Positions 51,610 through 63,928 of a DNA stretch of 64,000 bases are shown here, in pieces. The stretch lies in assembly GCF_000026545.1 (NCBI RefSeq), contig NC_011601.1. The stretch is one strand, 5' to 3'. Numbering within the stretch: position 1 is the stretch's first letter; each line of letters opens with the position of its first letter. Below the pieces are notes generated by a model. The model did no database searches. It was not told the DNA's origin and saw only the letters and a program-made list of their open reading frames with translations. Origin of the DNA: Escherichia coli O127:H6 str. E2348/69 (GTDB lineage Bacteria; Pseudomonadota; Gammaproteobacteria; Enterobacterales; Enterobacteriaceae). A program made the translations under genes and the position numbers.

Positions 51610-51793
51610 ATTTCTCTGAGATGTTCGCAAGCGGGCCAGTCCCCTGAGCCGATATTTCATACCACAAGAATGTGGCGCTCCGCGGTTGGTGAGCATGCTC
51701 GGTCCGTCCGAGAAGCCTTAAAACTGCGACGACACATTCACCTTGAACCAAGGGTTCAAGGGTTACAGCCTGCGGCGGCATCTCGGAGATTCC
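51610..51793 (+). ncRNA. ssrS: 6S RNA
   Basis: Sequence ATTTCTCTGAGATGTTCGCAAGCGGGCCAGTCCCCTGAGCCGATATTTCATACC...GGAGATTCCC matches 6S RNA; located between zapA and fau. Confidence 0.9.
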
Positions 51794-52416: not shown

Positions 52417-52469
52417 GGGCGACACACCTGCATCGCCCTGATTGACATCGTTGATTCTTTAACCTAATT

Positions 52470-52610
52470 TAGTGAGTAAGGGTAAGGGAGGATGACTCCT
52501 CCCCTGAGACTGACTGTTAATAAGCTGGGAAACTTATGAGTAACAGTACAATCAGTATGATGACAAGTCGCATCATAACCCTTCTCCTTCAAGCCCTCGC
52601 TTCGGTGAGG
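52470..52610 (+). ncRNA. sibC: SibC antitoxin sRNA, antisense to ibsC (boundaries approximate)
   Basis: Plus-strand region fully complementary to ibsC, ending in gccctcgcttcggtgagggc terminator hairpin. Confidence 0.5.
52517..52576 (-). CDS. ibsC: type I toxin IbsC (19-aa hydrophobic peptide)
   Basis: Minus strand ATGATGCGACTTGTCATCATACTGATTGTACTGTTACTCATAAGTTTCCCAGCTTATTAA = MMRLVIILIVLLLISFPAY. Confidence 0.7.
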   Translation of the reverse strand: MMRLVIILIVLLLISFPAY

Positions 52611-54292: not shown

Positions 54293-54952
54293 TCATTTCA
54301 CAATAGTTTTGACACCGTCAGGTGTGCCAATCAGCGCAACGTCCGCGCCACGGTTAGCAAACAAACCAACAGTCACCACGCCAGGAATCGCATTTATGGC
54401 GTTTTCCATCGCTATCGGGTCAAGGATTTCCATGCCGTGGACGTCGAGGATCACGTTGCCGTTATCGGTCACTACGCCCTGACGGTATTCCGGACGACCG
54501 CCCAGTTTCACCAGCTGGCGCGCCACTGCACTACGTGCCATCGGGATAACTTCTACTGGCAGCGGGAATTTGCCCAGAATATCAACCTGCTTGGAAGCGT
54601 CTGCAATACAGATAAATTTTTCCGCAACCGAAGCAATGATTTTTTCACGGGTCAGCGCCGCGCCGCCGCCTTTGATCATTTGCATGTGGCCGTTGATTTC
54701 ATCTGCGCCATCAACGTAGATGCCAAGGCTGTCGACTTCGTTGAGATCAAAAACGTGAATGCCGAGGCTTTTCAGTTTTTCAGTGGAAGCATCTGAACTG
54801 GAAACGGCCCCTTCAATCTGGCCTTTCATTGTACCGAGTGCGTCAATAAAGTGTGCGGCGGTGGAACCTGTACCTACACCAACAATGGTGCCGGGCTGAA
54901 CATACTGAAGTGCCGCCCATCCTACTGCTTTTTTCAATTCATCCTGCGTCAT
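54293..54952 (-). CDS. rpiA: ribose-5-phosphate isomerase A
   Basis: 219 aa from [18 protein letters not shown]. Confidence 0.93.
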
Positions 54953-54990
54953 GATCGTTTCGCCTGTGGTATGAAATTTCACACGCATTA

Positions 54991-55264
54991 TACTCTAAAT
55001 AATTCGAGTTGCAGGAAGGCGACAAGAGAGTGACAAATTCGTCAGGAACGAATTTGCCCAGCCGCAGGCTGGCCTTCGGTGAGAGACATGGATGTCTCTC
55101 ATTAATCCCCAGGAGCTTACAGAAGTAAGTGACTGGGGTGAGCGACAAATCCGCATGGAGCGGATTTGAACGCTGCTTGCAGCGGCCCCGTAAGGGGTGA
55201 GGCCCATGGATGGGCCGAATAACCCGCAGACGCAGCACATGCAACTTGAAGTATGACGAGTATA
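54991..55264 (+). repeat. ERIC/IRU repeat, expanded variant (~270 bp) with internal insertions
   Basis: Termini match the 125-bp copy at 62578-62702 in opposite orientation; core aagtaagtgactggggtgagcg present. Confidence 0.7.
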
Positions 55265-55279
55265 TACAAAAAAAGCGAT

Positions 55280-55558
55280 TCAGACCCCGTTGGCAAGCCG
55301 GGTGGTTAACTCATCCATAAAATATCGCGCAATGGCGGGCATCCCCTTTCGCCCCGCAAATAAAGCATACAACGGTCTGGGGATGCTGCTCCACGGTGCG
55401 AACAGGCGCACCAGTTCCCCGTTAGCAAGCCCCTGTTTACAGGCAAACTGAGGCAATAACGCCACACCATTCAACACAACCAGGGCGCGAACTCGCTGAG
55501 CGAAATGCATTAGCGCAAATCCCTGATCTTTTAAGCTGCGCGTTAACCACTGATACAA
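55280..55558 (-). pseudogene. yqfE: LysR-family regulator C-terminal fragment (yqfE-like)
   Basis: 92-aa ORF resembling a LysR effector-domain C-terminus, with no HTH N-terminal domain. Confidence 0.5.
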
Positions 55559-56747: not shown

Positions 56748-57830
56748 ATGTCTAACGTGCAGGAGTGGCAACAGCTTGCCAACAAGGAATTGAGCCGTCG
56801 GGAGAAAACTGTCGACTCGCTGGTTCAGCAAACCGCGGAAGGGATCGCCATCAAGCCGCTGTATACCGAAGCCGATCTCGATAATCTGGAGGTGACAGGT
56901 ACCCTTCCTGGTTTGCCCCCCTACGTTCGTGGCCCGCGTGCTACTATGTATACCGCCCAACCGTGGACCATCCGTCAGTATGCTGGTTTTTCCACAGCAA
57001 ATGAGTCCAACGCTTTTTATCGCCGTAACCTGGCCGCCGGGCAAAAAGGTCTTTCCGTTGCGTTTGGCCTTGCCACCCACCGTGGCTACGACTCCGATAA
57101 CCCACGCGTGGCGGGCGACGTCGGCAAAGCGGGCGTCGCTATCGACACCGTGGAAGATATGAAAGTTCTGTTCGACCAGATCCCGCTGGATAAAATGTCG
57201 GTTTCGATGACCATGAATGGCGCAGTACTACCAGTACTGGCGTTTTATATCGTCGCCGCAGAAGAGCAAGGTGTTACACCCGATAAACTGACCGGCACCA
57301 TTCAAAACGATATCCTCAAAGAGTATCTTTGCCGCAACACCTATATTTACCCGCCAAAACCGTCAATGCGTATTATCGCAGACATCATCGCCTGGTGTTC
57401 CGGCAACATGCCGCGATTTAATACCATCAGTATCAGCGGTTACCATATGGGTGAAGCGGGTGCCAACTGCGTGCAGCAGGTAGCATTTACGCTCGCCGAT
57501 GGGATTGAGTACATCAAAGCAGCAATCTCCGCCGGGCTGAAAATTGATGACTTCGCCCCTCGCCTGTCGTTTTTCTTTGGCATTGGCATGGATCTGTTTA
57601 TGAACGTCGCCATGTTGCGTGCGGCACGTTATTTATGGAGCGAAGCGGTCAGTGGATTGGGCGCACAGGATCCGTATAACAACGTTATCCGCACCACCAT
57701 TGATCATTGTGCACATCCCATGTATCGGGATTATCTGCATCGCTATCTGGAAAATGCGCCTGGCGGACATATTCACCACGATCTTCAGCAATATGCTGAA
57801 GCATCGTGGCGGTATAACGATGATTTCTGA
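56748..57830 (+). pseudogene. scpA: methylmalonyl-CoA mutase scpA (sbm) remnant: N-terminal ~325 native codons, then out-of-context tail
   Basis: Starts [21 protein letters not shown]; 360 codons versus ~714 expected; lacks conserved HCQTSGWSLT segment and B12-binding domain; 3' end overlaps convergent ygfI by ~145 bp. Confidence 0.8.
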
Positions 57831-58656
57831 TTGAATAAAGATATTCCTGCATATACATCGGCCTGTGCGGCGCATCAAAATATTTCAGCGTTGCCGGATT
57901 CACCAGTCGCCAGGCAAAATGCGGGATCACCGTCAGAAAATGTCCGCGCTCCACGGCGCTGATTTTGGCCATAAAACTGTAGGGACGATAAATAATGGTG
58001 GGATTGATCCCACAAGGTCGCATATTCGCATCAATCATTGCTTCGAAGTTGGCCCGGTTCTGAAAGCGCATTTGTAGCCAGGGTAGCTCCTGAAGCAACT
58101 CTTGCTCTTGTCGCTCTTCATAACGACGAGAAACGAGAAAGCCCAATCGCAGCGGCGGTAGTTCACTGATAGTCAGGTTTTCCAGTTCCTGAACTCGTGC
58201 AGATACATGCTGTGGGGAGATAATAAAATCTAACTGACGGTCAAAAAGATTATCGATAACGCCATTTGCGCTGAACTCAACTGGCTGGGCGGTCACGCCT
58301 TCGTACTTATCTCCGAGACTAATCAACTGATCAAAAATAATGGTCGGATAAGTATTATCTATGCCTATCACAATGTCTCGTGAACGACGTCCTGAGTTAT
58401 GGATTTCATTATCAATCGCAGAAAGTCGTTGATAAACCGGGAACAGTTTTTGATACAGTTCCTGTCCGGCTTTATTGAGGCTGATATTATTATCTTTGCG
58501 GGTAAATAGCGTATAGCCAATTTGTTCTTCCAGCGCGGCAATGCTTTTGCCAAATCGCGAAGCCGTCATATGGATTTTTTCTGCCGCCCGGGCAATATTA
58601 TTGGTTTGCGCTAATAAAATGAAATTGCGCATCTTTTTCGAAATAAAAATGTCCAT
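57685..58656 (-). CDS. ygfI: LysR-family transcriptional regulator YgfI (3' end possibly altered by adjacent deletion)
   Basis: 323-aa ORF; HTH begins near the internal Met ([25 protein letters not shown]), so true start may be 58632. Confidence 0.75.
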
Positions 58657-62577: not shown

Positions 62578-62702
62578 TATACTCGTCATACTTCAAGTTG
62601 CATGTGCTGCGTCTGCGTTCGCTCACCCCAGTCACTTACTTATGTAAGCTCATGGGATTCACTCTCTTGTCGCCTTCCTGCAACTCGAATTATTTAGAGT
62701 AT
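62578..62702 (-). repeat. ERIC/IRU repeat (~125 bp) between pgk and fbaA
   Basis: Imperfect palindrome with core cgctcaccccagtcacttactt; inverted copy of termini of the 54991-55264 element. Confidence 0.7.
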
Positions 62703-62764
62703 GAAAAAGTGCGTGCTTTAAAAGCGCGCTGCAACAAGGGCAGGTTTCCCTGCCCTGTGATTTT

Positions 62765-63928
62765 TTACTTCTTAGCGCGCTCTTCGAGCATCGCTACTGC
62801 AGGCAGTACTTTACCTTCCACGAATTCGAGGAATGCACCGCCGCCAGTGGAGATGTAGGAGATTTTGTCAGCAATGCCGAACAGGTCGATTGCTGCCAGA
62901 GTGTCGCCGCCGCCAGCGATGGAGAACGCTTCGCTGTCTGCGATAGCGTTAGCCACGATTTCAGTACCTTTGCGGAAGTTCGGGAATTCGAACACGCCAA
63001 CCGGACCGTTCCACAAAATGGTTTTCGCATTCTTCAGGATTTCAGCCAGTTCCTGAGCGGAAGCATCACCGATATCCAGGATCTGCTCGTCAGCTTTCAC
63101 ATCGTTAACAGATTTCAGGGTAGCCGGTGCAGTTTCAGAGAACTCAGTTGCTACACGAACATCAGACGGAACCGGGATGTTGCAGGTGGTCAGCAGACGT
63201 TTTGCTTCGTCAACCAGATCAGCTTCGTACAGGGATTTACCCACATCGTGGCCTTGTGCCGCGATAAAGGTGTTAGCGATACCACCACCAACAATCAGCT
63301 GGTCAGCGATTTTAGACAGGGAGTCCAGAACGGTCAGTTTGGTAGATACTTTAGAACCACCAACGATAGCCACCATCGGGCGAGCAGGTTCTTTCAGTGC
63401 TTTACCCAGCGCGTCCAGTTCAGCTGCCAGCAGCGGGCCTGCGCACGCAACGTCAGCGAATTTACCGATACCGTGAGTAGAAGCCTGCGCGCGGTGAGCA
63501 GTACCGAATGCGTCCATTACGAACACGTCACACAGTGCAGCGTATTTTTTGGACAGGGTTTCGTCGTCTTTCTTCTCGCCTTTGTTGAAGCGAACGTTTT
63601 CCAGAACAACCAGTTCACCTTCAGCAACGTCAACGCCGTCGAGGTAATCTTTAACCAGACGAACCGGGTTAGACAGTTTGTCTTTCAGGTAGTTAACAAC
63701 CGGCAGCAGAGAGAATTCTTCGTTGTACTCGCCTTCGGTAGGACGACCCAGGTGGGAAGTTACCATCACTTTTGCGCCTTGTTTCAGGGCAAGTTCGATG
63801 GTCGGCAGAGAAGCACGGATACGCGCGTCGCTGGTTACTTTCCCGTCTTTTACTGGTACGTTCAGATCCGCACGGATAAATACACGTTTCCCAGCAAGAT
63901 CCAGATCGGTCATCTTAATTACAGACAT
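62765..63928 (-). CDS. pgk: phosphoglycerate kinase
   Basis: 387 aa from [25 protein letters not shown]. Confidence 0.95.

Follow-up and report, generated by a model that had tools for sequence, protein, structure and literature searches.

The window, meaning the whole 64,000-nucleotide stretch of DNA analysed here, comes from Escherichia coli E2348/69 (O127:H6), the prototype enteropathogenic strain (EPEC), and 901 bases around the longer of its two repeat elements are 100% identical to NZ_CP059840.2, from whose RefSeq annotation the gene context was taken. The long element falls in the spacer downstream of yqfE and upstream of rpiA, and the short element lies inside the epd-pgk-fbaA operon (Table 1). 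RefSeq annotates no feature at either position, and an Rfam scan of the whole window gave no match at either element, 6S RNA (ssrS; 51610-51793, plus strand) and a Sib antitoxin RNA (52442-52592, plus strand, opposite the ibsC toxin gene) being the only matches. Where K-12 and E2348/69 have the yqfE pseudogene, 248 of 5426 E. coli genomes, for example SMS-3-5 and VCSW7 (locus L014, 881-1373), have an intact 897-bp gene for a LysR-family regulator. Escherichia albertii has no such LysR-family gene; there argP is the immediate upstream neighbour of rpiA, and homology to E. coli stops at TATAAT. Further along the window, at about 56748-58656 (locus L002, 11049-12957), RefSeq places a truncated methylmalonyl-CoA mutase family gene against a truncated srsR, so E2348/69 has apparently undergone a deletion between argP and yggE.

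Table 1. Positions in the window of the two ERIC elements, their parts and the neighbouring genes.
Feature	Position	Strand	Description
rpiA CDS	54293-54952	-	RefSeq annotation and ORF list; start codon 36 nt from the TA flanking the ERIC end
TATAAT, likely rpiA -10 box	54987-54992	-	TATA overlaps the insertion point; rebuilt by ERIC end plus flanking TA
Long ERIC (MITEEc1-type)	54991-55262	+ (ERIC2-primer sense)	272 bp; 123-bp backbone plus two modules
Left arm with terminal inverted repeat	54991-55033	+	43 nt; 44/44 against the short copy; inverted-repeat pair I1 with 55240-55264
ins1, site-B module	55034-55104	+	71 nt; hairpins 55034-55056, 55058-55072, 55080-55101; inverted repeats I5, I4
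Central core	55105-55145	+	41 nt; hairpin 55107-55120 / 55125-55138 (I3); ERIC2 primer site 55123-55144
ins2, site-C module	55146-55223	+	78 nt; hairpins 55146-55168, 55171-55184, 55186-55197, 55201-55216
Right arm with terminal inverted repeat	55224-55262	+	39 nt; 40/40 against the short copy; I1
TATA flank, yqfE side	55263-55266	.	With TA at 54989-54990 forms (TA)3, uninterrupted in all empty alleles
yqfE-like remnant of LysR-family gene	55280-55510	-	RefSeq; upstream neighbour of the long ERIC
fbaA	61472-62551	-	RefSeq annotation
Short ERIC, pgk-fbaA spacer	62578-62702 (element proper 62580-62701)	-	122 bp; 1 nt below the K-12 orthologue
G+C-rich hairpin between pgk stop codon and ERIC	62737-62756	+	Terminator-like score; spacer context, outside the ERIC
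pgk	62765-63928	-	RefSeq annotation

The initial annotation had described two ERIC repeats with common termini and a common core, the longer expanded by palindromic inserts, and both elements were found where it had placed them. Alignment with MAFFT of window:54985-55270(+) and window:62572-62708(-), i.e., with the short copy reverse-complemented, resolved three colinear blocks, the left arm (44/44 identical), the centre (38/41) and the right arm (40/40), separated by two segments that only the long copy possesses. The 22-mer core AAGTAAGTGACTGGGGTGAGCG was found at exactly two places in the window, one per strand, where 0 occurrences are expected (100 shuffles). The geometry described at the outset, a gap of 7.3 kb between copies in inverted orientation, is also correct.

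By sequence, both elements are ERIC/IRU repeats (MITEEc1 in ISfinder), as first proposed: the ERIC2 primer matches the core at 22/22 positions in each copy, terminal inverted repeats and TA flanks are present, both copies are intergenic, and the family has many copies per genome, with a median of 5-6 places per E. coli genome (megablast) and relatives in about 11 genera. The ERIC1R primer matches the long copy at 19/22 positions, two of the three mismatches being due to ins1, and the K-12 orthologue of the short copy at 22/22. ERICs are imperfect palindromes of about 123-127 bp; the short copy measures 122 bp, and the backbone of the long copy 123 bp once its modules are subtracted. [quoted passage not shown] MITEPlu5 and MITEYpe1 (the Yersinia ERIC), which duplicate their TA target, resemble our elements in their 123-bp length, the choice of TA as target, their extreme predicted hairpin and their presence or absence according to strain, but their descriptions cover the short form.

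The additional length of the long copy is concentrated in two inserts of 71 and 78 nt at specific sites, each containing perfect 9-10-nt inverted repeats (I4-I6), which bears out their earlier description as palindromic. The terminal inverted repeats of this copy are 25 nt long and 80% complementary (I1), and the whole element remains well folded, with a minimum free energy of -125 and -129 kcal/mol and z-scores of -10.2 and -9.7 for its two strands. ERICs that remain well folded despite interruptions have been known from the literature since 1997 (Sharp, 1997; Cromie et al., 1997), and such variants reportedly carry insertions of about 70 bp at specific internal sites. The long rpiA-yqfE copy is therefore a new copy of an already described form, and both it and its allelic series appear undescribed, if ordinary in kind. 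Optional units and length variants are also known from other non-coding repeats, such as the pneumococcal BOX element (boxA-boxB-boxC) and the Correia elements of Neisseria (104-157 bp), but these have no sequence relationship to ERIC, and the variable unit of BOX is a tandem repeat while the ERIC modules are distinct paralogues at distinct fixed sites. Small open reading frames within the long ERIC were considered as genes and rejected as chance frames.

The short copy is essentially an old, fixed resident of the pgk-fbaA spacer, being carried by 5414 of 5426 complete E. coli genomes with a nearly identical orthologue in K-12, and its RNA in the operon sense folds at -44.2 kcal/mol (z -6.0). 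Within it, at 62640-62660, E2348/69 differs from K-12 (locus L085) by a substitution and a 1-nt deletion in the ERIC1R site (GCTCATGGGATTCAC vs. GCTCCTGGGGATTCAC), so that this copy would prime poorly in ERIC-PCR. Long copies too must be partly invisible to ERIC-PCR typing, since ins1 destroys the 3' end of the ERIC1R site.

Our comparison of ins1 and ins2 shows that they are direct repeats in patches (76-82% identity; D1, D2) in the same orientation, with a shared layout of CAAAxxCGx-loop-xCGxxTTTG, further hairpins and an end of the form ...ATGGAT...TAA. A third paralogous module occupies a third site (after TTGCAGGA) in 342-bp ERICs of other E. coli strains, in the ybhM region and downstream of mnmH. 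All three insertion sites (A, B and C) follow ...GA/A, and the modules have one orientation despite the palindromic nature of the host element. Such triple-module ERICs of ~342 bp were located in the ybhM-DUF3969 spacer (L005, 1412-1753; L008) and downstream of mnmH (L006, about 1420-1738), where the ERIC has lost most of its central hairpin and adjoins a fragment of another ERIC end.

When the core and the first bases of ins2 were used as the query in a scan of 100,044 species genomes, the ins2 site with its module was recovered at 67 loci in about 11 Enterobacterales genera, among them Escherichia (E. albertii, E. whittamii and others), Citrobacter, Klebsiella, Kosakonia, Salmonella, Serratia, Dickeya, Pectobacterium, Leminorella and Intestinirhabdus, and in a soil metagenome-assembled genome (MAG). 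Site C is identical across the 67 loci and sites A and B recur across genera, the left arms of these loci carrying no module, B, A, or A+B; the ins1-type module at site B is also found in Kosakonia, Klebsiella, Leminorella and others. Across an alignment of 62 copies of ins2, pairing holds in 95.4% of the cells of its four helices, compared with 27-42% when the partners are slid by 1-3 columns, and 75 cells show changes on both sides of a pair, against 21±4.6 in shuffles (0/500 shuffles reaching the observed value), with compensatory change at 7 pairs. The 84.5% pairing of helix 2 is an underestimate, because MAFFT misaligns this helix where loops are longer. As a test of RNA-level selection on one strand, G·U and A·C mismatches in the module helices were counted at 15:6 (24:12 with helix 2), a suggestive but non-significant ratio from sequences that are not independent. 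Paralogous modules of one orientation with compensatory changes across genera therefore place the copy in a modular "long ERIC" subfamily of old standing rather than marking it as a product of local damage. The MAG "Proteobacteria bacterium CTSoil_132" (L020-L028) and Kosakonia genomes (L061-L075) each carry many near-identical long ERICs of the ins1+ins2 type, some of them truncated, which suggests that the long form has recently been amplified as a unit there.

At the rpiA-yqfE site itself, an ERIC is present in 66 of 5426 complete genomes and the site is empty in about 99%. Since this copy is missing from K-12 and from nearly all other complete E. coli genomes, it was probably not present in the genomes surveyed for the family in 2006. 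The occupied alleles comprise about 59 short ones, one with ins1 (strain 06-00048) and six records with both ins1 and ins2 from four strains, namely E2348/69 (three assemblies), AST215, VCSW5 and VCSW7, and the length gained at the site is accordingly 123, 194 or 272 bp. All have identical junctions and share two backbone variants (CAAGAGAGTG, loop CAGAAG) that set them apart from copies elsewhere, and the same junctions and backbone SNPs point to a single insertion whose descendants later came to differ by whole modules. The site-C junction reads GAGCGAACGCAG in the short allele and GAGCGA[78 nt]CCGCAG in the long one, so that the two differ beyond the insert and cannot be interconverted by a single deletion. 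The flanks of AST215 (long) and HYM1 (short) are identical, yet the two differ at one core SNP, at which AST215 agrees with VCSW7. Genomes with an intact LysR gene carry an ERIC at the rpiA site in at least 9 of 248 cases, against about 57 of 5178 others, a difference too weak for dating the insertion. Module states vary at other loci as well: the gyrA-adjacent ERIC has both modules (B+C) in SMS-3-5 and ins2 only in 2014C-3075, and the panC-rpnC spacer holds an ERIC with ins1 in O157:H7 and is empty in K-12. The panC-rpnC ERIC of EDL933 (L015, 1150-1180) also bears a 7-bp tandem duplication in its left arm (AAGTTGC AAGTTGC) that is missing there in L73 and 2013C-3492.

Across the E. coli genomes, ins1 was found in 615/5426 and ins2 in 645-648/5426, each at about one place per genome, and in E2348/69 the only ins2 is that of the rpiA copy. 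Between loci the modules are identical, ins1 at 71/71 positions in the panC-rpnC and gyrA-adjacent loci and ins2 at 80/80, while the backbones differ at 2-5 of 123 positions; modules could also have spread recently on their own. Carried further, this would make the inserts independent nested mobile elements which target GA/A in resident ERICs, and the long copy the product of two insertions in place, an account that would also explain the common sequence context of the three sites, the single module orientation within a palindromic host and the excess of short over long alleles at the rpiA site (about 59 to 6). We nevertheless consider it unlikely. The modules lack their own terminal repeats and duplications, every ins1 or ins2 place inspected fell inside an ERIC, and E2348/69 contains no second ins2 that might have served as donor. 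Moreover, modules at the same site are orthologous across genera and those at different sites are only paralogous, which fits old residence better than hopping, and the site-C junction differs between allele types by more than the insert.

The same lack of a donor in E2348/69 would be expected if modules had been lost rather than gained, that is, if the long form were the ancestral, complete ERIC, the 123-127-bp form a reduced one, and the rpiA site had lost first ins2 and then ins1. Consistent with this, long forms occur in about 11 genera, the B+C layout of E2348/69 is the common multi-copy form in Kosakonia, and long alleles at the rpiA site are found on three flank haplotypes, one with an intact LysR gene; the title of one earlier study, "Reductive divergence of ERIC sequences" (Zo, 2011), points in the same direction. 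This polarity is possible, if somewhat doubtful, given that no single deletion can produce the short junction at site C from the long one, that the modules are direct and not mirrored between the arms as an ancestral palindrome would predict, and that the 123-bp form greatly outnumbers the others in both Photorhabdus and E. coli.

Taken together, our data are best explained by two ERIC copies of which the long one is a backbone with optional modules, derived from one insertion at rpiA and subsequent templated exchange of modules, with no inversion between the copies in nature, and we put the probability of this explanation at roughly 85%. ERIC is a non-autonomous, TA-targeting miniature inverted-repeat element of Enterobacterales, the transcript of which is predicted to fold into a long hairpin, and which may be mobilised in trans by a transposase of the IS630 type with its TA target, as the IS630-like ends described for the related MITEPlu5 would suggest. 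At the rpiA site, modules would later have been gained or lost as whole units, probably through templated exchange in which another ERIC copy, or an allele of another strain, served as template, and not by simple deletion.

The position of the insertion relative to rpiA deserves attention. About 34 nt upstream of its ATG, rpiA has TATAAT followed by GCG, and two outgroups, E. albertii and a more distant enterobacterium, keep TATAATGCG at this spacing with divergent sequence upstream of TATAAT; this hexamer is likely to be the rpiA -10 box. In the rpiA sense, the filled allele reads G-TA-TA-[ERIC]-TA-ATGCG and every empty one G-TA-TA-TA-ATGCG. The ERIC end and the flanking TA thus restore TATAAT, so that rpiA keeps its -10 box while the native DNA upstream of it is replaced by ERIC. 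The element would accordingly have entered the second TA of the box, rebuilding the hexamer and replacing everything upstream, and rpiA transcription has probably been altered only quantitatively. A strict two-hexamer scan for sigma-70 promoters called none in the filled or the empty rpiA allele, within the long ERIC or in the pgk-fbaA spacer; none is called for rpiA because no allele has a match to the -35 hexamer. A literature search for a mapped rpiA promoter returned nothing relevant. An in-frame ATG abuts the ERIC junction (TATA/ATGCGTG; 54953-54988, minus strand) and lengthens the rpiA frame by 12 codons. A 271-aa database "RpiA" suspected of reading through the ERIC proved to be an over-extended start call across an empty site, and the same holds for database entries with longer RpiA starts in general.

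Insertion of ERIC with a clean TA duplication can be seen in the panC-rpnC spacer when the empty K-12 site is compared with the filled one of EDL933, where the element begins and ends with TA. TA flanks both copies in the window as well. At rpiA the net gain equals the length of the element with no extra TA, and as the target lies within a (TA)3 run, no TA duplication is resolvable there. Such a gain is not what a simple insertion with TA duplication would produce from the present empty allele. It has one tentative explanation, which we think possible but rather doubtful: that the empty rpiA-yqfE allele is the deletion footprint of an older ERIC and that the 66 occupied genomes are relics. ERIC would have entered the second TA of an ancestral G-TATAAT-GCG, duplicating TA, and would have been lost again, possibly many times, by hairpin-promoted slippage between 4-bp TATA repeats made up of the duplicated TA and the terminal TA of the element, a deletion which would leave exactly (TA)3. 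The predicted pre-insertion site G-TATAAT-GCG, which is the form seen in the outgroups, was found in no E. coli genome, the best full-length matches carrying a 2-nt gap. Insertion followed by the loss of one TA would account for the alleles in an equal number of steps. If the footprint explanation were true, four states (short, +ins1, +ins1+ins2 and deleted) would record both module turnover and the loss of a whole element on the -10 box of a housekeeping gene.

The proximity of the long copy to rpiA, 36 nt from the start codon and on a conserved -10 box, together with its extreme predicted RNA stability on both strands and a terminator-like hairpin facing rpiA within it (55058-55032), raises the question of whether the E2348/69 lineage has recruited it to control rpiA, either as a regulatory leader or as a small RNA. 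This seems very unlikely, since the long form is confined to 4 strains and about 99% of genomes have an empty site, the element has neither an Rfam match nor a predicted internal promoter, and terminator-like sites were no more frequent in the filled allele, its empty counterpart or the pgk-fbaA spacer than in shuffled sequence.

The initial annotation had further proposed that the inverted pair could mediate inversion. For RecA-dependent recombination, 40-44 bp slightly exceeds the shortest length that is processed efficiently, and the copies share three identical or nearly identical blocks of about this size in inverted orientation, through which the 7.3-kb argP...fbaA segment might be flipped. 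Nevertheless, the junction that such an event would create was present in 0 of 5426 complete genomes: a query of 600 nt, built from the rpiA-side flank and the reverse-complemented fbaA-side flank, was matched in every genome as two separate halves and never by one place covering both. Only 66 genomes carry both copies in the first place. Inversion would also detach rpiA from its upstream region, and it would cut fbaA off from the epd and pgk promoters of the operon, because no transcription start has been detected in the pgk-fbaA spacer, where the operon mRNA is polycistronic (PMC2759082). A working recombination substrate is thus extremely improbable here, and the ERIC pair would not serve as one in nature. 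An effect on mRNA stability, also suggested at first, is plausible for the co-transcribed pgk-fbaA copy by analogy with Yersinia, whose ERICs have an orientation-dependent, RNase E-linked effect on the stability of co-transcribed mRNA according to the reviews that summarize that work (De Gregorio et al., 2005). The two copies described here are oppositely oriented relative to their neighbouring genes on the minus strand.

Both ERIC repeats and the long variants belong to the textbook picture of enterobacterial genomes, and the finding as a whole is ordinary. The present analysis yields four results, some of which may already figure in the earlier papers on long variants: the scheme of three sites (A, B and C), modules that are paralogous and share one orientation, the counts of covariation across genera and a series of four states at one locus. 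This natural series at rpiA-yqfE, in which the element is absent, short or equipped with one or two modules between the same junctions, makes the turnover of ERIC modules, and possibly the loss of the element, traceable on a phylogeny. In the prototype EPEC strain, the position of a long ERIC on the conserved, likely -10 box upstream of rpiA also provides a test case for the end of a MITE replacing the DNA upstream of a promoter.
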